Shown in pieces: positions 41,386 through 59,855 of a stretch of DNA of 64,000 bases. The stretch spans positions 64,001 to 128,000 of IMG/VR virus record IMGVR_UViG_3300045988_126140, one strand, 5' to 3'. The notes beneath the pieces are model-generated. The model did no database searches. It saw nothing but the letters and a program-made list of their open reading frames with translations, and had not been told where the DNA came from. The translations under genes and the position numbers were made by a program. How positions within the stretch are numbered: the stretch's first letter is position 1; every line of letters begins with the position of its first letter. The DNA comes from a virus.

Positions 41386-41415
41386 TTGACAAATTAAACT
41401 AGAACGTGATATTAT
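41386..41415 (+). promoter_or_regulatory. sigma-A-type promoter, first of two in front of the plus-strand early array
   Basis: TTGACA, an 18-nt spacer, then TATTAT with an upstream TG. Confidence 0.6.
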
Positions 41416-41467
41416 ATAAACATAAACAACAACAAAAAAATAATTAATAAAAAATTAAAAAAAGTTG

Positions 41468-41496
41468 TTGACAAAATAGACGACAAGTGATAACAT
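41468..41496 (+). promoter_or_regulatory. sigma-A-type promoter
   Basis: TTGACA, a 17-nt spacer, then TAACAT. The 15-mer lies just upstream at 41437..41451. Confidence 0.55.
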
Positions 41497-41580
41497 TAAA
41501 GTATAAGTATTAGACAAGGGAGAACGCCCAACCGTTCATAAAGTAACAATAAAAATAATTAATAAATAGGAGTGGTAAAT

Positions 41581-41940
41581 ATGAAAACAAGAAATCCAAA
41601 GAACTTAGTTAAAAGATATGGAAATCTTTGCGAATTAGAAAACACTGTATCAGATTGTTATTTAGGAAATTCAAGTTTCTATATGTTATCTGACGGTAGA
41701 TACTTGAATGCCGAATCTGATGGTAGTTACAGAGCAGTCGACCATAGAATAATTTTTGGAGCTACAAAAATAAGTGCATACGATAATGACGCTTTTGGAA
41801 AATTACAAAGAAATTACCAACTTATTAGAATAGTTCCAGAGTGTGAAACTATAATGTTAGATAAAAAGCAGAAGATAACATTAGAACAACAAAGAGAACT
41901 TGACAACCTTGGTTTTGACATAGAATATTATTGGGAATAA
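41581..41940 (+). CDS. hypothetical early protein
   Basis: The ATG sits behind AGGAG; the track start at 41572 is a GTG inside the RBS. The 15-mer lies directly upstream. Confidence 0.65.
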   Translation: MKTRNPKNLVKRYGNLCELENTVSDCYLGNSSFYMLSDGRYLNAESDGSYRAVDHRIIFGATKISAYDNDAFGKLQRNYQLIRIVPECETIMLDKKQKITLEQQRELDNLGFDIEYYWE

Positions 41941-42000
41941 TAATCTATTCCCTAAAGCTCAAGTTTTAAAAATAATTAATAAATAAAGGGGATGTTTTAA

Positions 42001-42444
42001 ATGCTAAAAGGTGAAATAAGAAAAGGAACAATAAGAAATACAGAAGGACAAGAAAAGAAATATATTAAACAGTTCAAAGGTAACGACCTAGAAAAGTGTA
42101 TCATAGCAATAAATAATATGATGCATCAACGTATATACACATCAAGTCACTTAAGAAAAAAATCAACAGTATCATATAATATGAGAACAATTTGCGAAAT
42201 GTTGAAATATGGAGAATTTGACGTCATAGAATACAATTACACTAGAGGACAAGGAAGAATATTAGTGGAAAGTTGGAGTACATTTCCAGTAGAAATTGAT
42301 GATAAAATGACACAATGTACAATGAAGGTTGTCGTTGAACCAAAAACACAAAAAATTATAACAGTATGGTATAATAGCGTTGACGACACTCATGTAAGTT
42401 TAAATATGAAAAGATATAACAAGGACTTAGAAATTGTGTTCTAG
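42001..42444 (+). CDS. hypothetical early protein (weak resemblance to small DUF4258/BrnT-like toxin folds)
   Basis: A 147-aa ORF. The pattern H.RK...S....I.EML.YGE.DVIEY.....G..LVE......KVVVEP...KIITVWYN is only a remembered similarity. Confidence 0.6.
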   Translation: MLKGEIRKGTIRNTEGQEKKYIKQFKGNDLEKCIIAINNMMHQRIYTSSHLRKKSTVSYNMRTICEMLKYGEFDVIEYNYTRGQGRILVESWSTFPVEIDDKMTQCTMKVVVEPKTQKIITVWYNSVDDTHVSLNMKRYNKDLEIVF

Positions 42445-42497
42445 TCCTTCCAGCTCAATACTATCATTTATGATAATGAAAACAATTAATAAAATTG

Positions 42498-42526
42498 TTG
42501 ACAAATATTAAATGATAGTATATAAT
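42498..42526 (+). promoter_or_regulatory. consensus sigma-A-type early promoter
   Basis: TTGACA, a 17-nt spacer containing AATGATAGTA, then TATAAT. Confidence 0.7.
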
Positions 42527-42561
42527 ATCGATATAAAATAAATTGATAGGAGTGATGAGTT

Positions 42562-42708
42562 ATGAAGAAAGTATATTATAGCTTATATTTAGTAACAGAA
42601 GAAAGCGAAGAATTTTTAGCAAAAGTAAAGTCAAAAGGTCTTGCAATAAGAACTAAAATGTTATATAACAAAATATATGAAGGCAAAGGAAAAATAATTA
42701 TTAAATAG
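42562..42708 (+). CDS. hypothetical small protein (48 aa, below the track cutoff)
   Basis: MKKVYYSLYLVTEESEEFLAKVKSKGLAIRTKMLYNKIYEGKGKIIIK. It has an RBS (AGGAG) and its own promoter. Confidence 0.5.
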   Translation: MKKVYYSLYLVTEESEEFLAKVKSKGLAIRTKMLYNKIYEGKGKIIIK

Positions 42709-42780
42709 AGGATTTTAAGCCCTCTAGCTCAAGCTATCGAATGATAGCAAATTATATTAATAAAAAGGAGATATAAGATT

Positions 42781-42945
42781 ATGAAAAATAAAATGTTATT
42801 TGTATTAGTGTTAGTATTAGGAATTGTTATATTTAAAAATCAAATATCCATAGCATTGATGTATGCAGTTGACTGTATAGGTTATGCATTCAACATTAAT
42901 GTGGTTGATATTATTGATTTGCTTAATACAATATACTATTTATAG
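42781..42945 (+). CDS. small hydrophobic protein (54 aa, below the track cutoff)
   Basis: MKNKMLFVLVLVLGIVIFKNQ... with an RBS (AAGGAG). Confidence 0.5.
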   Translation: MKNKMLFVLVLVLGIVIFKNQISIALMYAVDCIGYAFNINVVDIIDLLNTIYYL

Positions 42946-42994
42946 TATTAAGCAATGATGGCAAAAATAATTAATAAATTTTTTAAAATAATTA

Positions 42995-43023
42995 TTGACA
43001 ACATCTAAATGATAGTATATAAT
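42995..43023 (+). promoter_or_regulatory. consensus sigma-A-type early promoter
   Basis: TTGACA, 17 nt (..AAATGATAGTA), then TATAAT. The 15-mer lies at 42964..42978. Confidence 0.7.
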
Positions 43024-43056
43024 ATTAAGTATAAGTAAATAAAGGAGTTGGTTTAA

Positions 43057-43404
43057 ATGACTAAAAAAGAAAAAAATATATTATTAGAAGAATATGGATA
43101 TCAATATCAAATGGAACAACTAATGGATAAGGATATTAGATTTTATAAAAATCTATTAGACAAATTAGGACTTCATAATGACAGAATAAATATAGAAAAC
43201 GATGTTTATTATATGGAAAATGAATTGAGTACTGTAAAATCCCATGCCTATGAAAGCCTTAATGATATAATTGAAAAATACAATGATGGTAAAAGAGTTA
43301 ACGTTGAAGTCATGGAAATTTATTTAGAAGAAATAAAATATCAAGCTACTAATGATGATAAAAAATATATAGAAAGCAGTAAAAAAATTATATTAGGAGA
43401 ATAA
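43057..43404 (+). CDS. hypothetical early protein
   Basis: A 115-aa ORF with an RBS and its own promoter cassette. Confidence 0.65.
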   Translation: MTKKEKNILLEEYGYQYQMEQLMDKDIRFYKNLLDKLGLHNDRINIENDVYYMENELSTVKSHAYESLNDIIEKYNDGKRVNVEVMEIYLEEIKYQATNDDKKYIESSKKIILGE

Positions 43405-43458
43405 TTTTCTCCTAAGCTCAAGCTATCTAAATTATAGTGAATAATATTAATAAAATTG

Positions 43459-43487
43459 TTGACTTGTTGTAAATGATAGTATATAAT
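43459..43487 (+). promoter_or_regulatory. sigma-A-type early promoter
   Basis: TTGACT, 17 nt, then TATAAT. Confidence 0.7.
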
Positions 43488-43522
43488 ATTAAATATAGAA
43501 TAAATAAAGGGGAGTCGATAAT

Positions 43523-44020
43523 ATGAAATATTTTGAAAGTTGTAAGAGTAAAGAAGACGCAAAAAAATTATATAAAAAATTAGCTTTCCAATATCATCCC
43601 GATAAAGGCGGGGATGTTGAAATAATGAAAGCCATCAATAATGAATTTGATGACTTTATGAAGAACTTTAGAGAAGAAAAAAAAGATAGTAAAAAAGAAT
43701 ATGAATTTACGGCAACTACATATAGAAACCTTATAGAACAATTAATAAAATTTGACGATATAACCATTGATGTAGTAGGCTGTTTTATATGGATAACTGG
43801 CAACACTTATCCAATAAAAGAAGAATTAAAACAATTAGGATTTAGATTTAGTAAAAATAAAAAATCATGGTATATTGCGCCAGAAGAATATATGAAAAAT
43901 AGAGTCAATTATAAGAAAAAATACAGTATGAATGAAATAAAAAATAAATATGGATGTACTTCTATAAAATCAAAAGGAGGATACAAGAAGGAAAAAGATA
44001 ATATAATAATGATAGGATAA
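43523..44020 (+). CDS. J-domain (DnaJ-like) protein, copy 1
   Basis: KEDAKKLYKKLAFQYHPDKGGDVEIMKAINNEFD carries the HPD motif. The C-terminal motif LKQLGFRFSKNKKSWYIAPEEY is shared with 48313..49167. Confidence 0.75.
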   Translation: MKYFESCKSKEDAKKLYKKLAFQYHPDKGGDVEIMKAINNEFDDFMKNFREEKKDSKKEYEFTATTYRNLIEQLIKFDDITIDVVGCFIWITGNTYPIKEELKQLGFRFSKNKKSWYIAPEEYMKNRVNYKKKYSMNEIKNKYGCTSIKSKGGYKKEKDNIIMIG

Positions 44021-44166
44021 ATAATTAATAATACTGCTTATAAGAACATAAGCAGTATAGCTCAAAATGATTATATAAATTATTAATAAAAACTATTGAC
44101 AAAAGATAGTAAAATATGATATTATATAATCATGATAAAAATAATTAATAAATAGGAGTGGTAAAT

Positions 44167-44676
44167 ATGAATAAAAAAACATTATGGACTATATTAGGTA
44201 TAACAAGTAATGCTATATTTCTAATAGGATTATTATTAATAATAGTATCATTTAAATATGATACTCATAAAGAATATGCATATACAGAAATGACTAGCAT
44301 AAACATACAAAAAGATGACAAAATAATAGCTAATGAACGTCCTCTTGATGATAGTCAAGAGCATGACAATAGAGTTAATAAAGATAATAAAGATTATGCT
44401 ACTAATAACACTAGTGATTATGTTATAAAAACAACTACAAAAAAATCTACATACAATAATAATAGCAAAAACAATAGTAATGATAATAAAAACTATAGTA
44501 ACACTAATACTAATAATACTAATAATACTAATAATACTAATAATACTAATAACAATAATAACTATACAGTTGAATATACAAACACCAGTTATTGTGGATT
44601 TTGTGGTAAACAATTAAATAACAACGATGGTATTTGTGAAACTTGCAAAGATATAAGAAGTAAATTAGGAGAATAA
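44167..44676 (+). CDS. membrane-anchored protein with an Asn/Thr repeat and a C-terminal zinc ribbon
   Basis: It has an N-terminal transmembrane segment. The NTNNTNNTNNTNN stretch comes from a 9-bp tandem repeat at about 44503-44560. The C-terminus reads CGFCG...CETC. Confidence 0.65.
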   Translation: MNKKTLWTILGITSNAIFLIGLLLIIVSFKYDTHKEYAYTEMTSINIQKDDKIIANERPLDDSQEHDNRVNKDNKDYATNNTSDYVIKTTTKKSTYNNNSKNNSNDNKNYSNTNTNNTNNTNNTNNTNNNNNYTVEYTNTSYCGFCGKQLNNNDGICETCKDIRSKLGE

Positions 44677-44732
44677 TTTTCTCCTAAGCTCAATACTATC
44701 ATTTTGATATTGAAAAATAATTAATAAAACTA

Positions 44733-44761
44733 TTGACAACTTATGAATGATAGTATATAAT
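44733..44761 (+). promoter_or_regulatory. consensus sigma-A-type early promoter
   Basis: TTGACA, 17 nt (..GAATGATAGTA), then TATAAT. The 15-mer lies at 44714..44728. Confidence 0.7.
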
Positions 44762-44800
44762 ATTAAATATAAGTAAATTAATAAAAAGGAGAATGATATT

Positions 44801-45115
44801 ATGAATAAAAAAGAATTAAGAACAATAGTAAAAGGTTTAGAAGGATATAAAATAGTTTTAACAAAAGAAGAATATAGAAAAGAAGGAAGAAAAAACTTCC
44901 CTAAAAATCCTTTAGAAATAACTGTTGAAGAAATAACAAGAGAAGAATATGAAAAAATATTCTCTAGTGTAAACTTCTTTATTGAAACATTTGGAGGGAC
45001 TGAAAGAATTTATAAAAGTTATACTTTAGCAGGTTATATACCTACTAAATTAGTAAGTACAAGTCCTAATAAAGAAATTAAAATTGTAAGAAGAATATCT
45101 ATTGAAAGATATTAA
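44801..45115 (+). CDS. hypothetical early protein
   Basis: A 104-aa ORF with an RBS. Confidence 0.65.
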   Translation: MNKKELRTIVKGLEGYKIVLTKEEYRKEGRKNFPKNPLEITVEEITREEYEKIFSSVNFFIETFGGTERIYKSYTLAGYIPTKLVSTSPNKEIKIVRRISIERY

Positions 45116-45279
45116 AAATAATTAATAAAGTTATTTATAATGATGACAAAATCATATATTATATAAATATAAAAAGGTTTACTGGTTCATCCTTTAAAAA
45201 CCAGTCGTAAAAATAATTAATAAATTTTTTAAAAAGCTTTTGACAATGATAATAAAATATATTAATTGGAGGTTTTAAA

Positions 45280-45516
45280 ATGAACAACAATTTAATAAGA
45301 TTAAGAAGTTTAATAGGGAGCGAATTAGATTATGATGATATAATTTGTGCAATGATAGATAAAGACGAAGAAGTAATAATCGATAACGTAAATCGTAGTA
45401 GCAACTTTGAAGAATATGGACTTTGCAATTTGTATCTAGTATATTACAACGACCCAATAAGTAGGACATATGGCATATGGGTTGATGTTGATAATATAAT
45501 ACGTGTAATATCATAA
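45280..45516 (+). CDS. hypothetical early protein
   Basis: A 78-aa ORF behind GGAGG. The antisense ORF 45275..45514 is rejected. Confidence 0.6.
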   Translation: MNNNLIRLRSLIGSELDYDDIICAMIDKDEEVIIDNVNRSSNFEEYGLCNLYLVYYNDPISRTYGIWVDVDNIIRVIS

Positions 45517-45587
45517 GGGCGTTAAGCCCTGGTTCTTAGTCATCAAAATGATGACAGAATATATTAATATTTTGGAGGTAATAATAT

Positions 45588-45818
45588 ATGCGTATAGAAG
45601 GTTATATATTGGACTGTGATAATAATAACTTAGCTAATAGCGTATTAGAATATTTAAAAAGAAAAACAAATAATTTAACTTATAAATATGAAGAGGATAT
45701 TTACAGTTTATTTGTAAAAGGTGATATAGTATCAAATGATACAGAAATATATATTAACAATTTTATAGATTTTTTAGAAAATAATAATATGTGTTTTATG
45801 GGTATGTTTGGGGAGTAA
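45588..45818 (+). CDS. hypothetical early protein
   Basis: A 76-aa ORF behind GGAGG. Confidence 0.6.
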   Translation: MRIEGYILDCDNNNLANSVLEYLKRKTNNLTYKYEEDIYSLFVKGDIVSNDTEIYINNFIDFLENNNMCFMGMFGE

Positions 45819-45941
45819 TTCCTCAAGTTCTAGATTGTCTAAAATGATACTAAAAATAATTAATAATACTGCCTATATTTATAGGTGATATTGCTCAAAA
45901 CTATCAAATGATAGTAAATAATATTAAAGGGGATGGAATAT

Positions 45942-46766
45942 ATGAACGAATTACAAATAAATAATAAATTAGTTGCTACTATACCAAGTTACGAAATTGC
46001 TAAAATGATGGATAGAAGACATAGCGATGTATTAAGAATGTTGGAAGGGAGTGAAAAACCTAAAGTTATCGGAATAATACCAGTTATAGAGGAGAACGTA
46101 GAACTACACTTATCCGATTATTTTATTAAATCTACATTCATAACAAGTCAAAATAAAAAAGTAACTTGTTATGAATGTACGCGAATGGGTTGTGATATAT
46201 TAGCGAATAAAATGACAGGTGAAAAGGGAATATTATTTACTGCGAAATATGTTAAACGTTTTAGAGAGATGACAGAATATATTGATAATCAAATACAACA
46301 ATTGTCACCAGAAGACCAAGCTGTATTAAATATAATAAATGCAAATGATAAACTTGATAAAGCATTAGCCATAAAGGATTACAAAGATATCATAGAAAAG
46401 CCTTTATTGCAAGAAATAGATAAAATTAAACCATTAGCTCAAAAATTTGAAGCATTTTTAAAAGATGATGGATTAATTGATATAAATACATTTGCTAAAA
46501 CATTAGGGATAAAAAATCTTGGAAGAAATAATATGTATAAATATCTTAGAGATAATCACTACATAGATAAAAATAATTATGCTATGCAGAGATATATTAA
46601 TCAAAAATTATTTATTCTTAAACCAAGGGGGTATAAAGAAAATTATTATGGTGAGCGTATGCTAATATTTAAAACTTTTATAACTAAAAAGGGATTGGCT
46701 TATCTATTAGGAAAATTAGTCGAAGACGGATATATAACTTTTACAGATGATAATAAAAATAATTAA
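45942..46766 (+). CDS. antirepressor (Rha-type N-terminal domain plus KilA-C/ANT-type C-terminal domain)
   Basis: IPSYEIAKMMDRRHSDVLRMLEG is Rha-like. DINTFAKTLGIKNLGRNNMYKYLRDNHYIDKNN.AMQRYINQKLFILKP is KilAC-like. Confidence 0.7.
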   Translation: MNELQINNKLVATIPSYEIAKMMDRRHSDVLRMLEGSEKPKVIGIIPVIEENVELHLSDYFIKSTFITSQNKKVTCYECTRMGCDILANKMTGEKGILFTAKYVKRFREMTEYIDNQIQQLSPEDQAVLNIINANDKLDKALAIKDYKDIIEKPLLQEIDKIKPLAQKFEAFLKDDGLIDINTFAKTLGIKNLGRNNMYKYLRDNHYIDKNNYAMQRYINQKLFILKPRGYKENYYGERMLIFKTFITKKGLAYLLGKLVEDGYITFTDDNKNN

Positions 46767-46777
46767 TAAATATTATT

Positions 46778-46805
46778 GACTGGAGTTTTATCCAGTCTTT
46801 TTTAT
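46778..46805 (+). terminator. intrinsic terminator
   Basis: GACTGGAGTTTTATCCAGTC followed by TTTTTTA. Confidence 0.75.
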
Positions 46806-47277
46806 TGTCTATAAAATGATAATGATTTTCATTAACATTAAATATTAACTCCAGAAGTTATTTTTATAAAAGCTCAATAAAATCAACCTCTTAAACGCCC
46901 TTCTAAGGCGTTTTAAAATGATTAAGGTATAAATACCTTGTAGGCTATCGAATTCCTTTATAATGGATTATATAGGATATTTTATATTTTTATCTATAAT
47001 TGATAATACTTTTCATTTATATATTTATTCTCATTTAAAAATGATACTAAAATATATTAATTTATGAATTGATAATAAATATCAAATAAAATTATTTGTT
47101 ATTGAGAATAATAATCATAACTATAAAAATTAATTTATATATAAAATAATATATTTTTAAAAAAATTTATATTTATTATTGATTTATAAAATTGAATATG
47201 ATATTATATAATCATAGTAGTAAATAAAAAGTTTTAAAAGATTATAAAAATAATTAATAAAATTAATAAAAAAGCTC

Positions 47278-47306
47278 TTGACAACGATAGTTAAATCATA
47301 TATAAT
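47278..47306 (+). promoter_or_regulatory. sigma-A-type early promoter
   Basis: TTGACA, 17 nt, then TATAAT. The 15-mer lies at 47247..47261. Confidence 0.7.
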
Positions 47307-47338
47307 AATATTAGATAATTAAATAAGGAGTTGATATT

Positions 47339-47851
47339 ATGTTAAGTTTACAAAAAGCAAATAAAATATTGGAATTAGTTAAATCAGAAGGTATAAAGCT
47401 AGATAATATAAAATTAATAAAAGATGATAAATTTTCATATAGTACAAATGGTGTGATAACAATTCAAAATTGTAATTTTAACATAAATTCTAAATGGTAT
47501 GAATTTATGATTAAATACTTAGAAAAAGAATATAATTTAGACTCTAATGTTTATATGTTTTATGACTTTTTAGAAACATTTTCATTTTTACATGAGGTAG
47601 GGCACGCAACACAAGGATTAAAGAATAATGAAAAATATGATGATGAATACTTTTTATATAAAAATACAATATATAAAAGTTATGAAGAAGCTTACAAAAC
47701 TTATAGAAATTTGACACTAGAAAAACAAGCTGATAAATTTGCGGTATCATTCATTAAAAATCATAAACTTGAAATCTGGGCAATAATGAATGATATAAGT
47801 GTAAAAGAGGCTGAAGAAGAGTCTCAATTTTGGGAAACAAATTTATATTAA
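47339..47851 (+). CDS. putative zinc metallopeptidase (HExxH)
   Basis: FLHEVGHATQG is the only motif recognised. Confidence 0.45.
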   Translation: MLSLQKANKILELVKSEGIKLDNIKLIKDDKFSYSTNGVITIQNCNFNINSKWYEFMIKYLEKEYNLDSNVYMFYDFLETFSFLHEVGHATQGLKNNEKYDDEYFLYKNTIYKSYEEAYKTYRNLTLEKQADKFAVSFIKNHKLEIWAIMNDISVKEAEEESQFWETNLY

Positions 47852-47973
47852 TCCTAATAGCTCGAGCTATTAGGATAATTATAAAAACAATTAATAAATT
47901 TAAAAAAGCTCTTGACAAAATAAAATGAAGTGTGATATAATTAAAATATAAAATAAATAAAGGAGTTGATAAT

Positions 47974-48249
47974 ATGAAAACAAATAGAGATAGAATATTA
48001 GAAAAATTAAAGAAGGAAGGGTTTATAATAGGTTGTTATGACAGTAATATAGATAAATTAAATTATAACAACATTAAAAAAGTACTAGACGATATTCCTT
48101 TTGGAAGTACTGATATACAAGTATCCCTAAATAGAAAAAAATACATTGTCGAAGTTTCTGATGTAGACAATGAGTATGATTTTAAAATGACAGAAAAAAA
48201 CACTTATTTAGACAGATATGGAGATGATGAATATTATGAAAAATGGTAA
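47974..48249 (+). CDS. hypothetical early protein
   Basis: A 91-aa ORF with an RBS and promoter cassette. Confidence 0.6.
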   Translation: MKTNRDRILEKLKKEGFIIGCYDSNIDKLNYNNIKKVLDDIPFGSTDIQVSLNRKKYIVEVSDVDNEYDFKMTEKNTYLDRYGDDEYYEKW

Positions 48250-48312
48250 GGGAATTAATCCCTTCCAGCTCTTAAAAATAATTAATAAGATAATTGAAAG
48301 GGGACAAATGAT

Positions 48313-49167
48313 ATGAAATATTTTAAAAATGTAAACTCTTTAGAAGACTTAAAAAAACAATTTAAAAAATTAGCTTTTAAACATCATCCAGATAGAGGTG
48401 GAGACGCTGAAATAATGAAAGCTGTCAATAATGAATATGATATGTTATTTCCTATTTGGAAAAATAGAGATAATATAAAAACAGAGGAAACAGCAGAAAG
48501 CACAAGAAATGAATTTTATACTGCAAATGGTTGGAAGGGTGACAAATATAATAGAGATTTAGATATTAAAACAATAGCAAAATTAGTTAGAAAACAATTA
48601 AAAGAAGAATTTCCAGATTGTAAATTTAGTGTTACAAAAAATGAATTTTCTGGAGGTTGTAGTTTAACTGTAATTGTAAAAGAAACTCCTAAAAGTGTTT
48701 ATGCAAATGATGATAAAAATATAATCAATTATGATATATCACCGTATATCGAATATCCAGAATTATCAATATATGGTAAAGAATTAGTTATAAGAGTTTG
48801 GGAAATAATAAATCAATATAGATATTCTGATTGTGACTATCAAATAGATTATTTTGACGTTAATTTTTATCCATCTTTAAACCTTGGTAATTATGATGAA
48901 ACAGTCAAAGTGGTTGAAAAAGTTAAAAAATCTAAAAGACAAGAAAAAAATAATAAAAATAATAATAAATTTGATATAATAGAAAACCTTGAAAAAAATG
49001 GAATAGAATTATATTTTGAAGGTAAACCATCAGAAGATTTTAGAAATATGTTGAAACAATTTGGATTTAGATGGAATAGAAATAAAAAATGTTGGTATGC
49101 TAAAAGAGATTCAGATATTTTAATAGTATTTGAAAATTTACAAAATCAATATAAATTAATAGGATAA
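48313..49167 (+). CDS. J-domain (DnaJ-like) protein, copy 2
   Basis: LEDLKKQFKKLAFKHHPDRGGDAEIMKAVNNEYD carries the HPD motif. The C-terminus reads LKQFGFRWNRNKKCWYAKRDSD. Confidence 0.75.
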   Translation: MKYFKNVNSLEDLKKQFKKLAFKHHPDRGGDAEIMKAVNNEYDMLFPIWKNRDNIKTEETAESTRNEFYTANGWKGDKYNRDLDIKTIAKLVRKQLKEEFPDCKFSVTKNEFSGGCSLTVIVKETPKSVYANDDKNIINYDISPYIEYPELSIYGKELVIRVWEIINQYRYSDCDYQIDYFDVNFYPSLNLGNYDETVKVVEKVKKSKRQEKNNKNNNKFDIIENLEKNGIELYFEGKPSEDFRNMLKQFGFRWNRNKKCWYAKRDSDILIVFENLQNQYKLIG

Positions 49168-49330
49168 TATTATAGGTTTATTGGTTTATCCTTTAAAAAC
49201 CAGCATAAAAATAATTAATAAATTTTTTAAAAATTCTTGACAATGATAGTAAAAATAATTAATAAGATAGCACTTGACTTTTATATGGGTTGAGTGCTAT
49301 AATATAATATAAGATAACTGAAAGGGGAAA

Positions 49331-49825
49331 ATGATGATGAATAATATTAAAAGATTCTTAAAATTATTAAATGACGAAACAATAGAAGGCAAAATAATAG
49401 ACTGCTATTGCACTCTTCATAAACAAGCATGGTATGATGGAAAAATAAAAACTAAAATAGTACTAGATTTAAATGGAGTAATAACAGCTACAAATGAAGT
49501 AAAAGATAATCAATTACTAATAATAGAACTCAATGAATATGTAGAAGTACCAGAGACAGAATTTGGTAACATTGAATTACAAGATGATTATCAAGAATTT
49601 GTAAATTATCTAATGGAAGAATGTGAAGAAATATTTGAAAGTGATATAGATAAACAGCAGTATATTTGGGATAATGCAACATGGAATGAATATAAAGATT
49701 TCAATGGATTAGGTTATGAGGATGAAGAACAATATGTTTGGAATTATATTTGTGATATGGAAGATGCAGATTTTATATATAATGTTATATCAAAATTAAT
49801 AAGCCAACTAGAAATGATGGTATAA
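49331..49825 (+). CDS. acidic protein, paralog of 51243..51791
   Basis: The shared N-terminus is (R/K)FL..LND..I.G.I......H...W.DG.IK..I.L..G. The C-terminal half is very rich in D/E/Y/W. Confidence 0.65.
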   Translation: MMMNNIKRFLKLLNDETIEGKIIDCYCTLHKQAWYDGKIKTKIVLDLNGVITATNEVKDNQLLIIELNEYVEVPETEFGNIELQDDYQEFVNYLMEECEEIFESDIDKQQYIWDNATWNEYKDFNGLGYEDEEQYVWNYICDMEDADFIYNVISKLISQLEMMV

Positions 49826-49963
49826 ACTATTATATGGTAGTATGGAAATATCTATACTACCATATAGAAAAAAGATAATAAAAATAATTAATAAATAGCT
49901 CTTGACAAATATATCTACAATGATATATAATATAACTATAATAATAAATAAGGAGTTGATAAT

Positions 49964-50215
49964 ATGAAACAATGCACAGGAGATTATTTATATAAAGGTT
50001 TCTTAATTAATTTTAGCGAATACGACCAAGCTTGGAGATTAGAACCTACATTACAATTAACAGGAGATGATTCCGACACAGCAATAGATTTTGCTATAGA
50101 GTATAACAATGATAGTAAAAAATTTAGAACTATCAATCAAGCTAAAAGATATATAAAAGATAATTACAATGAATTAGTATTAGAAATTAAAAAATTATAT
50201 GAGGATTTTAAATAG
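49964..50215 (+). CDS. hypothetical early protein
   Basis: An 83-aa ORF with an RBS and promoter cassette. Confidence 0.6.
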   Translation: MKQCTGDYLYKGFLINFSEYDQAWRLEPTLQLTGDDSDTAIDFAIEYNNDSKKFRTINQAKRYIKDNYNELVLEIKKLYEDFK

Positions 50216-50321
50216 TCCTCAAGCTCAAAAGTCAATGATGATAAAAATAATTAATAAAATCATTGACAAATAATAACATAACATGATATACTTAATATAT
50301 AAAATTGATTGGAGGAATTAA

Positions 50322-51173
50322 ATGATGGAAAAATACATTAAAAGTCCGATGAATTACACAGGGGGCAAAGGTAAATTATTAAGTCAAATATTACCACTAT
50401 TTCCAAAAAATATAAATACTTTTGTAGATTTATTTACAGGTGGTTGTAATGTAGCAGTAAATGTATCAGCTAATAAAATAATAGCTAATGATTTATGCAC
50501 TCAAGTAATAAATACATATAAAGGAATACAAAATAATACTACAGAAAAAGCTATCGAAATGATAGAAAAAATAATTAACGAATATGATTTAAGTAAAGAA
50601 AACAAAGAAGGTTATTTAGAATTAAGAAAAGCTTACAATGATGGTAATAAAGAATGGCATATATTCTATACTTTATTAGCTTATTCATTCAATAATCAAA
50701 TTAGATTCAATAAAAAAGGCGAATTTAATATGCCTTTTGGAAAGGGTAGAAGTAGTTTTAACTCAACTTTAAAAAAGAAATTTGAAGACTTTTCAGACGC
50801 AATTCATAATAAAAATATAAAATTTACAAATAACGATTTTAAAAAATTAAATATAGATAAATTAAAGAATGATGATTTTGTATATTTAGACCCACCATAC
50901 TTAGTAACAGAAGCTACTTACAATACAGGTTGGAATGAAGAAACTGAAAAAGAATTATTATCATTATGTGACAGATTAAATGAAAAAGGTATAAAATTTG
51001 CAATATCTAATGTATTAGAACATAATGGAAGTAAAAATGAAATATTAATAAACTGGAGCAAAAATTATAATATAAACTACTTAGATTATAATTATTCAAA
51101 TTGTAATTATCATAAAAAAGATAATGGACATAAAAGTATAGAAGTTTTAATTACTAACTACAAAAATAATTAA
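50322..51173 (+). CDS. DNA N6-adenine methyltransferase, Dam/D12-class (no restriction partner in the window)
   Basis: MNYTGGKGKLLSQILPLFP, FVDLFTGGCNV (FxGxG) and VYLDPPYLV (DPPY) appear in the order typical of Dam-like enzymes. Confidence 0.8.
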   Translation: MMEKYIKSPMNYTGGKGKLLSQILPLFPKNINTFVDLFTGGCNVAVNVSANKIIANDLCTQVINTYKGIQNNTTEKAIEMIEKIINEYDLSKENKEGYLELRKAYNDGNKEWHIFYTLLAYSFNNQIRFNKKGEFNMPFGKGRSSFNSTLKKKFEDFSDAIHNKNIKFTNNDFKKLNIDKLKNDDFVYLDPPYLVTEATYNTGWNEETEKELLSLCDRLNEKGIKFAISNVLEHNGSKNEILINWSKNYNINYLDYNYSNCNYHKKDNGHKSIEVLITNYKNN

Positions 51174-51242
51174 TAAAACCCTTGACAATGATAGTTAAAC
51201 ATGATATACTTAATATATAAAAATAAAAAGGTGGTTGATATT

Positions 51243-51791
51243 ATGAATAAAACTGAAAAATTTTTAGGATTTTTAAATGATGACAAAATATTTGGTGAAA
51301 TACAAGAATTATATCACGAACTACATCTAAATTTATGGACTGACGGTCATATAAAACATGATATAATATTAACTATAGACGGAGATGTTGAATATACAAG
51401 TTATATAGGTAATCAGTCTAGAATGGATGTATATGAAGGTGATGCAATACTTATATGTACTATGGACGAATATCCAGAAGTATTTGACGAAGATTTAGGG
51501 GAATTATCAGAAGTTGATAATTATAATGAATACCTTGAATGGTTAGAAAAAGATGCTAGAATCAATTATGAATATGAAACAACAGAAGAAGTTAAAGAGC
51601 ATATTGAAGAGTATGCTGACGACTGGGAAAAATATTCAGAATTTGATTTAATAACATACGAAGAACAGCAACTTTTAGTTTGGCAATTTAATTGTGAACA
51701 ATACGACTGGGATTATATAAACGATAAAATTTATCAAAGAATAGACGAGTTAGAAGAAATAGGGGAAAATTACTTTAAAAGAGGGTTTTAA
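51243..51791 (+). CDS. acidic protein, paralog of 49331..49825
   Basis: The start was chosen behind AAAGGTGG. See 49331..49825. Confidence 0.65.
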   Translation: MNKTEKFLGFLNDDKIFGEIQELYHELHLNLWTDGHIKHDIILTIDGDVEYTSYIGNQSRMDVYEGDAILICTMDEYPEVFDEDLGELSEVDNYNEYLEWLEKDARINYEYETTEEVKEHIEEYADDWEKYSEFDLITYEEQQLLVWQFNCEQYDWDYINDKIYQRIDELEEIGENYFKRGF

Positions 51792-51846
51792 ATAACCCTC
51801 TAGCTCAATCAATGATGATAAAAATAATTAATAAAATTATTGACTT

Positions 51847-51908
51847 ATATAATATAGTATGTTATATTTAATATATAATATAGTATGTTATATTTAATAT
51901 ATAATATA
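51847..51908 (+). repeat. 26-bp tandem repeat (about 2.4 copies) duplicating a promoter -10 region
   Basis: ATATAATATAGTATGTTATATTTAAT occurs twice, plus a partial third copy, directly after TTGACT. Confidence 0.8.
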
Positions 51909-51928
51909 AATAAAGGGGTGTTGATAAT

Positions 51929-52231
51929 ATGGATGAAAATGTATGTGCGAATTGTGATTATAATAAGATGTGGGGAGGTAATTGTGAATATGAACAAGAA
52001 GAAAAATGCATATATGCAACTGCTAGATATTTAACTCATGATGAACGTAATAAGATAGAAAAGAAATTAATTATGATTGATTATTTATTAAATGATATAG
52101 TCGAAATCGACAAAGAGAATACTATCGAGGATTTAACAGATAAGATTTCAGATGTATTGTGTGAAATGGAATATGAAGTCAAATATAGAATTAGAGACTT
52201 TGAATATATGAAAAAGGAGGGTTTTAAATAA
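51929..52231 (+). CDS. hypothetical Cys-rich early protein
   Basis: A 100-aa ORF with N-terminal CANCDYNKMWGGNCEYEQEEKC. Confidence 0.6.
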   Translation: MDENVCANCDYNKMWGGNCEYEQEEKCIYATARYLTHDERNKIEKKLIMIDYLLNDIVEIDKENTIEDLTDKISDVLCEMEYEVKYRIRDFEYMKKEGFK

Positions 52232-52353
52232 CCTTCCAGCTCTTGAAATGATAGTAAAAATAATTAATAAATTTTTTAAAAAGCTCTTGACATCTTAGTT
52301 AAAATCATATATGATAATATTAAGATTAAGATAATTGAAAGGGGTTTTATAAT

Positions 52354-52791
52354 ATGAGCAAATATATAACATTACCTAGTACAATAACAATGACTACTTT
52401 AGCATTAGCAAAAAGTTTATCAAGTAAACCAGTATCAACATCACCAGTAATAACATACCTTACTCCAGCAACTGTAAAACCACACATAAGCAAAGTAATT
52501 TGCACTCTAAAAGCATCTAGTACTCCAGCAACAATGTTGCCTTATCTTGTAGGTTATAAAATAGCATTGCGTGGTACTCACCACAAATACGTATGTGTGC
52601 ATAGTGTCAAAATTCCTACATCTTTGTTGATAGTATCAACAACATCAACTGGTATTATTACTTATACAGGTATGAGTTACAGTGGTGGTTATGCACATTA
52701 TACAGTACATGTATTTCCATACACTAGCACAACAACATTAACTGGTTTAATAAAGATGCTAAAAAGTGGTATGTATACATTACTACCATAA
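52354..52791 (+). CDS. compositionally aberrant Thr/Ser-rich basic protein (no D, E, N, Q or W)
   Basis: A 145-codon ORF with an RBS (AAAGGGG) and a canonical promoter cassette. See the finding. Confidence 0.5.
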   Translation: MSKYITLPSTITMTTLALAKSLSSKPVSTSPVITYLTPATVKPHISKVICTLKASSTPATMLPYLVGYKIALRGTHHKYVCVHSVKIPTSLLIVSTTSTGIITYTGMSYSGGYAHYTVHVFPYTSTTTLTGLIKMLKSGMYTLLP

Positions 52792-52839
52792 TATAAAAGG
52801 TTTGCAGGTAATCCTTTAAAACCTGCTAAAAAGATTATC

Positions 52840-52911
52840 AAAATAATTAATAAAAATAATTAATAAATTTTTTAAAAGCTCTTGGCAATGATAGTAAAAA
52901 TAATTAATAAA
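52840..52911 (+). repeat. cluster of three copies of the 15-mer AAAATAATTAATAAA
   Basis: Copies lie at 52840..52854, 52853..52867 and 52897..52911. This is an example of a motif found about 45 times in the window. Confidence 0.9.
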
Positions 52912-52930
52912 TAATATCAAGGGGGTAAAA

Positions 52931-53713
52931 ATGATGGGGAAAAATATTAATAGAATAGGAGAGAGAAATATAAATACATTTGGAAGTGAAATGGTTATAG
53001 TAGAATATAGAATGAATAGAGATATCGACGTTTATTTTCCAGAATATGACTGGACTTTTAAAAATGCGAGATATGAAACTTTTAAAAAAGGAAACATTAA
53101 ATGTCCTTATGATAGAAGTATATATGGTGTTGGTTACATTGGTGAGGGTAATTATAAGGTAAGTGAAAATCGCAAACTAACTAAAGTTTATAGCACTTGG
53201 CAAAGCATGCTACAAAGATGTTATAGTAATAAATTTCATAAGAAACAACCTACTTATATTGGTTGTGATGTTTCTGAAGAATGGCATAATTTTCAAAACT
53301 TTGCCAAATGGTATTATGAAAATTATTATGAGGTAGAAGGAGAAAAAATGCATTTGGATAAAGATATTTTATATAAACATAATAAGATATACTCTCCTAG
53401 GACTTGCATATTTGTACCTCAAACTATTAATGGTTTATTTATTAAAAGGGATAATAATAGAGGTAAATCAGTTATAGGGACAACGCCTCGTAAAAATGGT
53501 AAATATCAAGTAAAATGTTGTTTAATAAATCCAGAAACAGGTAAGTCTAAATATGAATATTTAGGGATTTATGACACACAAGAAAAAGGGTTTAAAATAT
53601 ATAAGTATTATAAAGAGAAAAATATTAAACAAGTTGCTGACTATTACAAAGATTTAATACCATACAAATTATATCAAGCTTTATATGAGTATGTTGTTGA
53701 AATAGATGATTGA
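52931..53713 (+). CDS. homing-endonuclease-like protein, paralog 1 of 5 (HNH-like core plus AP2-like C-terminal domain)
   Basis: The family signature is G(E/K)...N.FGSEM.I..Y, then Y.TW..ML.RCY...(F/S)..K.PTY..C.V..EWHNFQNF..WY, then LDKDIL.KHNKIYSP.TC.FVPQ.IN, then GKYQV.C.L.NP.TGKS...YLG.YD....AF..YK.YKE. Confidence 0.55.
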   Translation: MMGKNINRIGERNINTFGSEMVIVEYRMNRDIDVYFPEYDWTFKNARYETFKKGNIKCPYDRSIYGVGYIGEGNYKVSENRKLTKVYSTWQSMLQRCYSNKFHKKQPTYIGCDVSEEWHNFQNFAKWYYENYYEVEGEKMHLDKDILYKHNKIYSPRTCIFVPQTINGLFIKRDNNRGKSVIGTTPRKNGKYQVKCCLINPETGKSKYEYLGIYDTQEKGFKIYKYYKEKNIKQVADYYKDLIPYKLYQALYEYVVEIDD

Positions 53714-53767
53714 AAATTTAAAATGATACCAAAAACTATTAATAAATAATATTAAGGGGTGGTAAAA

Positions 53768-54367
53768 ATGATGAAAGAAACTTGGACTGAAAAAGAAATA
53801 AGAAGTTATATGAAGAACTTTGTTAATGACATGGACGAAGAAGACAAAATGGTAATAGGGGATATAATTGATGCAATTCCAATATCAGTAGACGGACGAC
53901 TTAAAAATAGTCTAGGTTACTTCTCTGGTATATATAAAAGAAGTGGAGAATTTGTAGAACCTGTAAAATTTAAATTTTCCAAACGTATTAACTGTTATGA
54001 CGATAACACTATAAAACATATTATAAATCACGAACTTTTACACTTATTATCAGACAAGAAGTATGGTAAAAGTACAAGCCATAACAAAGAATGGAAAGAA
54101 CTTTGCTGTAAATATAGGATAAATGATGATGAATTCTTTACTCCTAATTTAGAATTAGAAAAAGATTATCACCGTTATCATATATATTGTAATGAATGTT
54201 ATAAATTAGTAGGTGTAAGAGACAGATTATCAAAAGAGAAAATAATTCAATTGTTATTATATGGAAGACATCAAGATGATTATGGTAAATTAAGAATATA
54301 TGATAATAAAGAAAAAGGATATATTAAATTAAACAATATAATGGTAAATGATGGTGAAAATAATTAA
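53768..54367 (+). CDS. SprT-like zinc metalloprotease-domain protein
   Basis: It carries IINHELLHLL (HExxH). The start was chosen behind AAGGGG. Confidence 0.55.
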   Translation: MMKETWTEKEIRSYMKNFVNDMDEEDKMVIGDIIDAIPISVDGRLKNSLGYFSGIYKRSGEFVEPVKFKFSKRINCYDDNTIKHIINHELLHLLSDKKYGKSTSHNKEWKELCCKYRINDDEFFTPNLELEKDYHRYHIYCNECYKLVGVRDRLSKEKIIQLLLYGRHQDDYGKLRIYDNKEKGYIKLNNIMVNDGENN

Positions 54368-54437
54368 TAAAACTGTTGACAAATGATAGTGAAATATGAT
54401 ATAATTAATGATATAAAACATAAGGAGGTTGGTAATT

Positions 54438-54920: not shown

Positions 54921-55085
54921 AAGAACTAAAATGATGACAAATAATATTAATTGATAGGCTAGATTTTATTCTAGTCTATTCTTTTATAGTTCAAAAAGAT
55001 TGTAAAAATTATTAATAAATCTATTGACAAAATATACCATATGATATATACTTATACATATATAAGATATTAAAGGGAGGAAAAG

Positions 55086-55988: not shown

Positions 55989-55991
55989 TTT

Positions 55992-56031
55992 TAATTCATA
56001 GGTAATTTTACTTAAAGTTATGTTAATATAA
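55992..56031 (+). promoter_or_regulatory. class II bipartite promoter-like motif
   Basis: TAATTCATAGGTAATTTTACTTAAAGTTATGTTAATATAA lies upstream of paralog 2. Confidence 0.5.
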
Positions 56032-56131
56032 TGATAACAATTAATAAAGTGGATAAAGTTTTGTTGTGTCACAATTAAAAATAACGTTACTTATCCTCTT
56101 TATTAAATTATAATATAAAGGAGGAGATATT

Positions 56132-56944: not shown

Positions 56945-56982
56945 AATTGACTATAAAAATAATTAATAAAGGAGATGATAAT

Positions 56983-57792: not shown

Positions 57793-57803
57793 TCATTGCT
57801 TTC

Positions 57804-57831
57804 AAGAGGTTTTATACCTCTTATTTTTTTT
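57804..57831 (+). terminator. intrinsic terminator
   Basis: AAGAGGTTTTATACCTCTT followed by ATTTTTTTT. Confidence 0.75.
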
Positions 57832-57973
57832 GCTTTATTTTCAAAATAATTAATAAATTATGAATATTTAAACTCCATTTTGTATATAATATAGTAAAGA
57901 AAATTAATAAAAAGTAGTTGTCATTAAGGATATCATATGTTATACTAAGCAAGACAACTAAGAAGGAGTTAAA

Positions 57974-58846: not shown

Positions 58847-58873
58847 AGGTTTTTCTCTAGTTTCTTTTTTTTT
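58844..58873 (+). terminator. intrinsic terminator
   Basis: TAGAGGTTTTTCTCTA followed by GTTTCTTTTTTTTT. Confidence 0.7.
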
Positions 58874-59838: not shown

Positions 59839-59855
59839 AACAATTAGTAATATTA

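Follow-up and report, generated by a model that had tools for sequence, protein, structure and literature searches.

A reiterated intergenic cassette resembling PeSL elements, built on a family-specific 15-nt boundary word, in a phage-plasmid-like siphovirus genome

The window analysed here is a 64,000-nt stretch of viral DNA (positions 64,001 to 128,000 of IMG/VR record IMGVR_UViG_3300045988_126140) whose right arm appears to be an accessory, early-type region in which a composite regulatory cassette, about 60-160 bp long, stands between small genes. The order of parts is a variable hairpin with the box AGCTCWW, an optional RCTATC-N-GATAGY repeat, the strand-specific 15-nt word AAAATAATTAATAAA (hereafter the 15-mer), a near-consensus sigma-A promoter and a strong Shine-Dalgarno (SD) sequence. 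An earlier note on positions 41386-54430, made from the sequence alone, had likened this arrangement to the promoter-early stem-loop (PeSL) cassettes of T4-type phages, proposed to drive modular gene shuffling. Our results support the PeSL-like interpretation and extend it, as the cassette appears to share with PeSLs both its architecture and its behaviour among related genomes. We consider it rather probable that these are PeSL-like expression cassettes that double as portable recombination homology.

The window has a G+C content of about 25% and two divergent arms. Genes at 1-35 kb lie on the minus strand (the structural arm), and about 35 small plus-strand genes with strong SDs, mostly without a known family, occupy the right arm from 41.4 kb to the window end. 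A megablast search of INPHARED phages and PLSDB plasmids with the cassette region and the structural arm found no near-identical record and only one HNH fragment. Relatives comprise an IMG/VR family of 133-140-kb contigs whose terminase-like protein is 87-100% identical, a more distant 125-kb contig of Terrisporobacter mayombei (58% identity; from the isolate genome of strain ban5-GNNATD2-55, JACRYU010000004) and, distantly, the large plasmidial siphoviruses of Clostridioides difficile (portal identity 30-33%; PMC5786514), the paper on which makes no mention of intergenic repeats or promoters. The IMG/VR family counts roughly 15 complete genomes, 3300045988_118892, _125645 and _129603 among them. 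Because these are its relatives, the window is best taken as part of a phage-plasmid-like siphovirus genome of about 136 kb with a low-GC gut Firmicute host. The element looks temperate and plasmid-borne, judging by its Rep3 initiator, Rha/ANT antirepressor and tyrosine recombinase.

The 15-mer is a family-specific gene-boundary word that occurs genome-wide and is always co-oriented with the genes. It is asymmetric and all A/T, without a G. A search allowing up to one mismatch gave 52 matches in the window against 1.12 expected, and no shuffle reached 52. At 3-35 kb all 14 copies occupy the minus strand and at 41.4-63.5 kb all 38 the plus strand, each following the direction of the genes. Overall there is about one copy per 1.2 kb, rising to one per 0.6 kb in the right arm, and the two arms differ four-fold in density. 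The earlier note had treated the word as part of the module of its region; the repetition is real, but the word is not confined to that region and is found in both arms on the transcribed strand. Related loci contain 17-30 copies per 12-20 kb, all on the gene strand, compared to 0-1 in unrelated loci of 24-25% GC; together with the shuffles, these loci exclude chance in A/T-rich DNA as the source. The edges are sharp, with about 1.1 bits at each of the 15 positions and about 0 bits in the flanks.

A scan of all IMG/VR for the 15-mer followed by N0-3-GGAGG returned 102 stretches, about 80 of them within this phage-plasmid family. In the Terrisporobacter locus (L060), a variant word, TATAAAATTAATAAA, stands directly before the SD of structural genes, and it is present at junctions orthologous to three window sites (about 40% protein identity); five or six further orthologous junctions lack the word in both the window and L060. 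No comparable repeated k-mer was found in phiCD211, which excludes the word as a general trait of large Clostridia phage-plasmids, and a full-text search for the 15-mer string returned no paper from the library searched. Because the word is uniform within a genome yet divergent between lineages, the comparison argues for a sequence-specific reader or concerted evolution, not for a generic A/T tract.

The position of the word was classified over 373 distinct contexts from the family. The result showed that 147 are SD-adjacent, with the SD beginning 0-3 nt past the word in 105 and the start codon 12-19 nt downstream. Another 119 lie upstream of a -35 hexamer at a bimodal spacing of 4 nt (53) or 15-16 nt (32); the two classes differ by about one helical turn, and the longer one carries the linker TTTTTTAAAAAGCTC, which we take to resemble the consensus UP element. 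The remaining 107 are elsewhere, before a hairpin or terminator or inside open reading frames (ORFs) as KIINK. At 45115, 46756, 51163, 54357, 62651 and 63502 the word contains the stop codon of the upstream gene. Two promoter readings of the word were excluded: TTGACA-like hexamers 16-18 nt upstream of SD-adjacent copies are not enriched relative to shifted offsets, so these copies are not sigma-A -10 elements, and the distance from AGCTCAA to the 15-mer ranges over 8-27 nt, so the two are not a -35/-10 pair.

The near-consensus promoters reported earlier were borne out. Perfect TTGACA-N16-18-TATAAT occurs seven times against 0.35 expected, and 41.3-55.1 kb contains 16 promoter-like sites scoring 11-12 out of 12, all on the plus strand and nearly all with a 15-mer upstream. 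A near-consensus sigma-A promoter precedes about 16 of the 22 plus-strand genes at 41.5-54.4 kb, so that the idea of one promoter for each gene applies to some three quarters of them and not to the remainder. No credible sigma-A promoter was detected in the structural arm. We infer the 'early' character of the right arm from its host-type promoters, their absence from the structural arm and the presence of a sigma-like gene in that other arm.

The hairpins were assessed in 66 distinct 32-mers taken upstream of every non-promoter AGCTC box in the window and related loci. The results showed that 85% fold at -6 kcal/mol or below, compared to 3.5% of shuffles and 3.8% of random genomic 32-mers, confirming the predicted hairpins at stop codons. 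The helix finishes 0-2 nt before AGCTC, and the stop codon typically lies in the loop or an arm. There are 50 different stems of 6-10 bp, which share no boxes; the 5' arm is G-rich (179 G-C against 25 C-G pairs, with 17 G.U pairs), and orthologous hairpins show compensatory changes, for example ctgcTtata...tataAgcag versus ctgcCtata...tataGgcag. None of the AGCTCWW hairpins has a U-tract, in agreement with the earlier remark that they mostly lack a T-run, and a terminator scan of 41.3-55.1 kb found canonical plus-strand terminators only at 46778 and 54953. For these two reasons the hairpins are probably not classical terminators, although their structure appears to be under selection.

The other boxes were also recovered. 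AGCTCAA has 14 matches in the window against 6.2 expected, 10 of them on the plus strand at 41.9-51.8 kb. The AATGATA(G)TA box, AATGATAGTA at up to one mismatch, has 49 against 19.6 expected; it often forms the 3' arm of another inverted repeat whose sequence is conserved, RCTATC-N2-8-GATAGY, and the same half-site recurs within the spacer of several promoters. The earlier note had attached the whole module to nearly every gene. Its parts, their order and their statistics hold, but the hairpin with AGCTCWW is found at only 11 of the 22 plus-strand gene ends at 41.5-54.4 kb, and this part disappears past 52.3 kb; all six parts in order, as described for nearly every gene, occur at only 7-8 of the 22. 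Nor is the similarity limited to generic -35, -10 and ribosome-binding elements, since it includes a bounded 15-nt word, AGCTCWW locked to variable hairpins and the RCTATC...GATAGY repeat.

A second 3'-end element was observed on the plus strand at 45176-45205, 49175-49204 and 52799-52826, and also in the related loci L020, L023, L025, L027, L029, L034, L042 and L127. It consists of GGTTT, a 6-nt stem, a conserved loop T-N-ATCCTTTAAAA and the complementary stem, which covaries (ACTGGT/ACCAGT, GCAGGT/ACCTGC, GTGAGT/ACTCAC). An upstream AAGG could pair with the loop CCTT in a pseudoknot-like manner. About 11 distinct copies exist in the family, each just ahead of a 15-mer, and Rfam gave no match.

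The exchange of genes at these cassettes was followed by comparing the window, with BLAST, to eight loci (L035-L042) that have the Dam gene at their centre. The results showed that homology comes in gene-sized blocks that are replaced, deleted, inserted or reordered gene by gene. The window has the order A(47974)-B(48313)-C(49331)-D(49964)-Dam, and L038, L039 and L042 have A-C-D-B-HNH-Dam; read at base level, the junctions of this rearrangement are the 15-mers at 48275, 49252 and 50244. In L039, the Dam promoter and Dam are separated by an HNH gene, which has its own 3' 15-mer and SD. Among blocks of at least 97% identity, many switches from identical to unrelated sequence fall exactly at the edge of a 15-mer, and others lie within the promoter, coincide with the SD or start codon, or follow a terminator. 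Indels, replacements and reorderings bounded by cassettes are thus present in related genomes.

Junctions were counted from homology blocks of at least 95% identity and at least 300 bp across nine genomes, which gave 184 junction contexts. Intergenic DNA, 29% of the sequence, holds 65% of them, and 18% fall at a 15-mer compared to 4.5% expected (p = 1e-11); when only intergenic junctions are considered, the figures are 26% and 13% (p = 2e-4). Exchange thus shows a preference for the cassettes, and among single junction sites none is commoner than the 15-mer. Because the crossovers spread across the whole conserved cassette, the pattern fits homologous recombination better than site-specific recombination.

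Traces of exchange are also visible within the window. The 30 bp shared by the ends of two genes, 43392-43421 and 44664-44693, are exactly identical and end abruptly on both sides, and the proteins of 43057-43404 and 44167-44676 are unrelated, as the earlier note had reported. The overlap of tandem 15-mers and a duplication of 26 bp have the look of scars left by recombination. Five HNH paralogs, 61-77% identical and of PHROG 953, lie on the plus strand of the right arm (52931-53713, 56132-56944, 59062-59838, 61091-61867 and 62720-63502). Four have a 15-mer immediately upstream, the one at 56132 follows the bipartite motif described below, and three have a 15-mer right past the stop codon; the positions of HNH genes vary among relatives. 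Shuffling accounts for the spread of these five paralogs and of a DnaJ-like N-terminal module, and explains only loosely the many paralog pairs that had been ascribed to it. A further HNH or homing endonuclease gene was noticed in the structural arm at 26176-27156 (minus strand).

PeSLs have been described in T4-type myoviruses (Arbiol et al. 2010, PMC2839356; Comeau et al. 2014, PMC4122927) as an AT-rich stretch with an upstream stop codon, a sigma-70-type promoter, a stem-loop with a G-rich and then a C-rich arm, and an SD with start codon, and their crossovers are scattered across the element (PMC2839356). Mini-circles excised by recombination between flanking elements also count among PeSL traits. 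The elements in the window likewise are composites of some 100 bp between genes, in a plastic region with many small ORFans. They have a strong promoter (the 16 sites noted above) with the A/T-only 15-mer 4 or about 15 nt upstream, sometimes holding the stop codon; their stem-loops have G-rich then C-rich arms, and the cassette closes with an SD and start codon. Close relatives differ by gene insertion, deletion and replacement at the elements, again with scattered crossovers, and the resemblance to PeSLs stands. However, there is no sequence or phylogenetic relation to PeSLs, and the setting here is a siphovirus-type phage-plasmid of a Gram-positive host. In the window, moreover, the stem-loop is always at the stop codon, tied to AGCTCWW and without a U-tract. 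For the AT-rich part there is one invariant word of 15 nt; throughout the structural arm it also abuts ribosome sites with no promoter present, which PeSLs leave unexplained.

These observations suggest the following composite explanation. Host sigma-A polymerase would transcribe the right arm from many strong promoters, one per accessory gene. At the transcript level the hairpin with AGCTCWW would serve for 3'-end stabilisation, processing or attenuation and would not be a classical terminator. The 15-mer, for which a sequence-specific reader is probable, would aid the next downstream signal, at the DNA level from an UP position at promoters and at the RNA level as leader at ribosome sites. 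Since the same 15-100 bp recur in direct orientation at gene boundaries, the cassettes could serve as portable homology for general phage or host homologous recombination. Genes would then move in register, together with their own expression signals, making the cassettes a functional analogue of T4-type PeSLs.

Several points weigh against this explanation. The junction enrichment at the 15-mer is about two-fold over the intergenic null, about 35% of junctions are inside ORFs, and a third of the 15-mer copies belong to neither position class, lying before a hairpin or terminator or inside ORFs. As the hairpins lack a U-tract, the terminator role of the PeSL stem-loop is not simply transferable. 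A generic UP-element or leader role leaves the near-invariant 15 positions, the sharp edges and the lineage differences unexplained. Gene orientation coincides with the presumed direction of replication in both arms, making replication-linked and transcription-linked roles inseparable, and every functional step is inferred from sequence.

The main rival explanations concern the molecular reader of the 15-mer, and most are compatible with a role of the cassettes in recombination. We give limited credence to the thought that the word is not a generic A/T tract but the recognition site of a dedicated, element-encoded factor, be it a DNA-binding protein with an asymmetric site, a regulator or nuclease that binds RNA, or an enzyme that nicks. 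If it were true, the 52 sites in 64 kb would extrapolate to a boundary code of roughly 100, which would switch each gene unit's expression and also delimit the units exchanged among related gut phage-plasmids, amounting to a self-contained integron-like cassette system based on expression signals. One rival, which we regard as unlikely, is that the word is the DNA site of a phage repressor, probably monomeric and with an asymmetric site, like the stoperators of Cluster A mycobacteriophages, which are sites of L5 gp71-type repressors (PMC9283540). These immunity repressors have a helix-turn-helix and a stoperator domain, and one of the sites is the operator over the early promoter. Bound near the -35, such a repressor would shut early promoters; at operon junctions it would block elongating polymerase and keep the plasmid-prophage silent, recombination being a by-product. 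As with stoperators, which are asymmetric 13-15 bp sites, the word is asymmetric, 15 bp long and sharply bounded, it is present in dozens of copies in both arms, oriented with transcription, at promoters and inside operons, in short intergenic regions or over stop codons, and it is lineage-specific, as stoperators are (PMC9283540); the temperate, plasmid-borne look of the element also fits. On the other hand, the 15-mer adjoins the -35 at 4 nt without overlapping it, a roadblock does not require the SD to lie as close as 0-3 nt, the word consists of A and T only, and the right-arm density of one copy per 0.6 kb greatly exceeds that of the 26 sites in one Cluster A genome (PMC9283540). Pfam and PHROG scans of some of the window proteins gave no repressor candidate, and no further search for repressor homologues was made.

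About as doubtful, in our view, is the idea that the word acts on mRNA, as the binding site of a translational regulator or enhancer or as an endoribonuclease cleavage site; in the latter case a polycistronic transcript would be cut shortly before each SD, the resulting 3' end being shielded by the hairpin and the resulting 5' end by the SD with its bound ribosome. This would resemble the early mRNAs of T7 and of the B. subtilis phage SP82, which are processed by RNase III at hairpins between early genes. The window shares with them reiterated intergenic hairpins without a U-tract in an early region read by host polymerase, but its stems are short (6-10 bp) and variable in sequence, with an external conserved box. 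The SD-adjacent contexts, 105 of them at 0-3 nt, speak for an action on mRNA, as do the retention of the word at specific structural-gene junctions in a 40%-identity relative, the order of hairpin, single-stranded A/U word and SD, and the stem G.U pairs, which fit folding of the sense-strand RNA. A precedent is offered by the start-associated sequences (SAS) and extended SAS (ESAS) of Cluster K mycobacteriophages (Pope et al. 2011, PMC3203893), which contain the SD (AGGAG) 3-7 bp from the start codon and are confined to the non-structural half of the genome in 11-19 copies. Both are short, asymmetric, one-orientation repeats directly upstream of gene starts, sometimes with an upstream stop codon and often preceded by an inverted repeat with variable spacer, and both are kept in place, SAS at the same gene families across subclusters and the 15-mer at orthologous L060 junctions. 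The 15-mer, however, has no G and lies upstream of the SD, so that the defining SD-containing feature of SAS fails; it also occupies both arms, with 52 copies in 64 kb, and a third of its copies precede promoters. That last class, 119 contexts, would be absent from the mRNA of the downstream gene, and its fixed -35 spacing would go unexplained. Some copies, moreover, lie between a stop codon and a terminator, and no Rfam family matches.

We think it very unlikely that the word is the target of a dedicated cassette-moving enzyme, either a site-specific recombinase or an HNH nickase, in an integron- or homing-like manner. The word is sharply bounded and strand-specific, a tyrosine recombinase gene (55086-55988) lies within the region, the five HNH paralogs are each flanked by 15-mers and the L039 HNH insertion is beside one. 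The likeness to integrons, with attC and IntI, extends to one-gene cassettes, a hairpin-forming, superficially attC-like 3' element and a shuffled cassette order. However, junctions have no single point, being spread over the 15-mer, promoter spacer, SD and start codon and into ORFs; most cassettes have their own promoter, and the stems have neither conserved attC core boxes nor other recombinase boxes. The recombinase itself is generic and Xer-like, scoring 37 bits, at the C-terminus only, with the integron-integrase model against a cutoff of 265, and the integron reading was excluded. Even less probable is a polar motif of replication or segregation, used in lagging-strand priming or as a Chi- or KOPS-like word read by an FtsK-like ATPase, whose intergenic placement would have no other cause than that ORFs seldom accommodate a word made of A and T with two frames closed by stop codons. 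The orientation does flip exactly with GC skew at about 35-41 kb, where the Rep3 gene and repeats lie, copies average about one per 1.2 kb, and an FtsK/SpoIIIE-like gene is present at 37479-38597; but tight spacing to -35 and SD and conservation at particular gene junctions are not expected of such a motif, and neither is the four-fold difference between the arms.

If the cassettes do combine expression signals with portable homology, the findings have wider implications. Recombination-linker regulatory cassettes had previously been detailed only in T4-type myoviruses of Gram-negative hosts, and to meet this logic again in a phage-plasmid family of gut Firmicutes that is unrelated to them, and whose linker is much more uniform, points to convergence on a way of exchanging genes one by one. 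The modular theory of phage evolution is said to have been put forward by Botstein in 1980, and lambdoid boundary sequences were reportedly described by Clark and colleagues in 2001. Like such linkers, the cassettes are short conserved inter-module sequences that would permit in-register exchange; unlike them, they have single-gene resolution, use one word in more than 50 copies and are fused to expression signals. The 'linker' prediction of that theory would thereby gain a concrete, testable sequence, and the 15-mer would join SAS and stoperators as a genome-wide, strand-specific phage word. The cassettes may also offer ready-made strong promoter and ribosome-binding modules for low-GC anaerobes, and mark sites where anti-defence and other accessory genes come and go.

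The individual cassettes, all on the plus strand, vary around the same plan. The right-arm head (41386..41580) has a first promoter, TTGACA 41386-41391 with TATTAT 41410-41415, a 15-mer at 41437-41451, a second promoter TTGACA at 41468-41473 and a second 15-mer (41552-41566) abutting the SD TAGGAGTGG, with ATG at 41581. Full cassettes begin with 42422..42561, in which a hairpin at about 42422-42449 holding the stop TAG (42442-42444) is followed by AGCTCAA (42452-42458), an ACTATC...GATAAT repeat (42460-42477), the 15-mer variant AAAACAATTAATAAA (42479-42493), the -35 (42498-42503), AATGATAGTA (42511-42520), the -10 (42521-42526), SD and ATG 42562. In 43393..43522 the hairpin (43393-43415) reaches into the last four codons and leads to AGCTCAA (43415-43421), the degenerate 15-mer AATAATATTAATAAA (43440-43454), the -35 TTGACT (43459-43464), AATGATAGTA (43472-43481), the -10 (43482-43487) and ATG 43523. 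Two 15-mers are found in 44018..44166: behind a hairpin (44031-44058) and AGCTCAA (44059-44065), a degenerate copy (44076-44090) precedes the -35 (44096-44101) and the -10 TATTAT (44120-44125), and the other (44138-44152) abuts the SD before ATG 44167. The full cassette at 44665..44800 comprises hairpin 44665-44687, AGCTCAA 44687-44693, an ACTATC repeat, 15-mer 44714-44728, -35 44733-44738, AATGATAGTA 44746-44755, -10 44756-44761 and ATG 44801.

Further along, 50200..50321 runs through a hairpin (50200-50221), AGCTCAA (50222-50228), the box AATGATGATA (50234-50243), the 15-mer (50244-50258), the -35 (50263-50268) and the -10 TATACT (50287-50292) to ATG 50322 of the Dam methylase. In 51780..51928 a hairpin (51780-51801), AGCTCAA (51802-51808), box (51811-51820) and 15-mer (51821-51835) precede the -35 TTGACT (51840-51845) and ATG 51929; directly after this -35, an exact 26-bp tandem duplication of 2.4 copies (51846-51908) multiplies -10-like TATAAT words. 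The last full cassette, 52216..52353, has a hairpin with one G.U pair (52216-52237), AGCTCTT (52238-52244), AATGATAGTA (52247-52256), the 15-mer (52257-52271), the linker TTTTTTAAAAAGCTC, a -35 (52287-52292), the -10 TATGAT (52310-52315) and ATG 52354.

Promoterless cassettes are seen at 41933..42000 (hairpin 41933-41952 with the stop codon in the loop, AGCTCAA 41956-41962, 15-mer 41969-41983, SD, ATG 42001) and at 48248..48312 (hairpin 48248-48264, AGCTCTT 48267-48273, 15-mer with one mismatch 48275-48289, SD, ATG 48313). There is also no promoter at 42706..42780, where a hairpin (42706-42726), AGCTCAA (42726-42732) and the perfect repeat GCTATCGAATGATAGC (42733-42748) are followed by a degenerate 15-mer, SD and ATG 42781, and neither promoter nor AGCTC at 45516..45587, which has the hairpin GGGCGTTAAGCCC (45516-45530), the box AAATGATGACA, a degenerate 15-mer, SD and ATG 45588. 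At 45806..45941 a hairpin (45806-45828), AATGATACTA (45843-45852) and a 15-mer with one mismatch (45853-45867) precede a second hairpin with GCTCAA, an ACTATC...GATAGT repeat, SD and ATG 45942. The reduced junction 53714..53767 retains the box AAATGATACC (53722-53731), the degenerate 15-mer AAAACTATTAATAAA (53732-53746), SD and ATG 53768.

Other junctions keep the promoter. The one at 42946..43056 has no hairpin but carries a 15-mer (42964-42978), a 16-nt A/T linker, the -35 (42995-43000), AATGATAGTA (43008-43017), the -10 (43018-43023), SD and ATG 43057. At 46756..47338 a 15-mer (46756-46770) forms the stop codon of the Rha/ANT gene, ahead of the canonical terminator (46778-46797) and about 450 nt of A/T-rich non-coding DNA; another 15-mer (47247-47261), a -35 (47278-47283) and a -10 (47301-47306) then lead to ATG 47339. 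The junction 47851..47973 shows the palindrome ATCCTAATAGCTCGAGCTATTAGGAT (47851-47876), a 15-mer with one mismatch (47884-47898), the linker, -35 (47912-47917), -10 (47936-47941) and ATG 47974. In 49826..49963 an A/T-rich hairpin (about 49828-49867) and a 15-mer (49881-49895) precede AGCTC abutting the -35 (49902-49907), with the -10 at 49926-49931 and ATG 49964. The 15-mer at 51163-51177 supplies the stop codon of Dam and opens the junction 51163..51242 (-35 51182-51187, AATGATAGTT 51187-51196, -10 51205-51210, ATG 51243), and the one at 54357-54371 supplies that of the SprT-like gene in 54357..54437 (-35 54376-54381, -10 54400-54405, ATG 54438).

The 'empty' or 'doubled' cassettes listed earlier (45115-45279, 49201-49330 and 52840-52911) were all found. 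In the 'empty' one (45113..45279), a 15-mer over the stop codon (45115-45129) is followed by an orphan promoter-like stretch, the GGTTT-stem-ATCCTTTAAAA-stem element (45176-45205), a 15-mer (45210-45224), the linker TTTTTTAAAAAGCTT, TTGACA (45240-45245), SD and ATG 45280. The 'doubled' cassette 49168..49330 contains the GGTTT-hairpin element (49175-49204), a 15-mer (49208-49222), linker, TTGACA (49237-49242), AATGATAGTA (49242-49251), a 15-mer with one mismatch (49252-49266), the -35 TTGACT (49274-49279), the -10 (49298-49303) and ATG 49331. In 52792..52930, also 'doubled', the GGTTT-hairpin element (52799-52826) precedes overlapping 15-mers (52840-52854 and 52853-52867, a 13-bp tandem doubling), linker, TTGGCA (52882-52887), AATGATAGTA (52887-52896), a 15-mer (52897-52911), SD and ATG 52931 of an HNH endonuclease paralog.

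Past the cassette region, plus-strand 15-mers (55005..63516) start at 55005, 56956, 57730 (inside an ORF, as KIINK), 57843, 58952, 59033, 60024, 60405, 61062, 62651, 62691 and 63502, each ahead of a -35 (55024, 58972, 60043, 60424, 62670 and 63532) or an SD. On the minus strand of the structural arm (3167..35018), their low coordinates are 3167, 4424, 5498, 8555, 15046, 15586, 18946, 20393, 20943, 27217, 29646 (inside an ORF), 32038, 33392 and 35004. About half of these abut an SD (35004, 32038, 20943, 20393, 15586 and 8555), those at 18946 and 15046 lie between a stop codon and a terminator hairpin, and none of the 14 has a sigma-A promoter.

The sigma-like gene of the structural arm (30841-32016, minus strand) is preceded by a 15-mer and SD and encodes a 391-aa protein with a match to PHROG 5767 'sigma factor' (E = 2.5e-73) and 32% identity to a phiCD211 protein annotated as sigma factor; beyond this, only a sub-threshold LuxR/sigma-4-like helix-turn-helix (HTH; residues about 297-338) and a C-terminal Zn-ribbon-like end were detectable. 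A bipartite motif, ATAGGTAATTT-N13-GTTAATA, has five copies against 0 expected, co-oriented with local genes and upstream of an SD, at 32594-32624, 35126-35156 and 35415-35445 on the minus strand and at 55998-56028 and 58878-58908 on the plus strand. The motif may represent a class of promoters read by a factor other than sigma-A, possibly the 30841-32016 regulator. The 15-mer had also been considered as a promoter for this regulator to act on. That reading is weakened by the several copies between a stop codon and a terminator, by the weakly sigma-like nature of the regulator, whose HTH Pfam matches are sub-threshold, and by the bipartite motif, which is the better candidate.

Besides the Rha/ANT antirepressor, Dam methylase, SprT-like protein and five HNH paralogs, right-arm products include DnaJ-like proteins and the Xer-type recombinase. 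Gene 44167-44676 contains a 9-bp plus 6-bp tandem repeat (TAATACTAA, AATAAT; 44455-44566, plus strand) that encodes an Asn/Thr-rich low-complexity tract and varies in length among relatives. The minus-strand genes at 1-35 kb encode a minor-tail/tape-measure domain, a terminase nuclease domain, a portal-like protein and an IS605-type TnpB. The last (13766-15004, minus strand; OrfB_IS605, a Cas12f1-like TNB domain and HTH) is a structural-arm insertion directly downstream of the 15-mer and terminator at 15046-15000. No tRNA was found in the window, and Rfam gave no match at the gathering threshold for the whole window and none at E <= 1 for 41.0-55.2 kb. Conserved, structured-looking non-coding DNA follows 15-mers at about 3100-5500 and 27160-27300 on the minus strand (for example AAACTTCAACGACTA...GTACAC...GTGG and ...ATACATGGTAAGAAAGNCTAAGT), adjoining tail and endonuclease genes; these stretches recall parts of group I introns, with no Rfam match, and the tape-measure gene of phiCD211 carries an annotated group I intron.

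Between the arms, the Rep3 replication initiator (35871-36827) and the FtsK/SpoIIIE-like gene are followed by a repeat-rich non-coding stretch of about 2 kb. Downstream of the Rep3 gene, the stretch 39921-40480 has 22-bp direct repeats of CTAGTTATCCACAAGCATTTTG (2.7 copies) and TATCAAC / TTTTCCTAAAGC repeats, which are candidates for iterons or an origin. Four of the six window copies of TGTCGAA, which we take to be the Spo0A-box sequence, fall within 560 bp (40601-41157) of the divergent non-coding control region, among repeated AATTATTTTTTATGTAAG units, and this cluster may tie the switch or replication of the element to sporulation.

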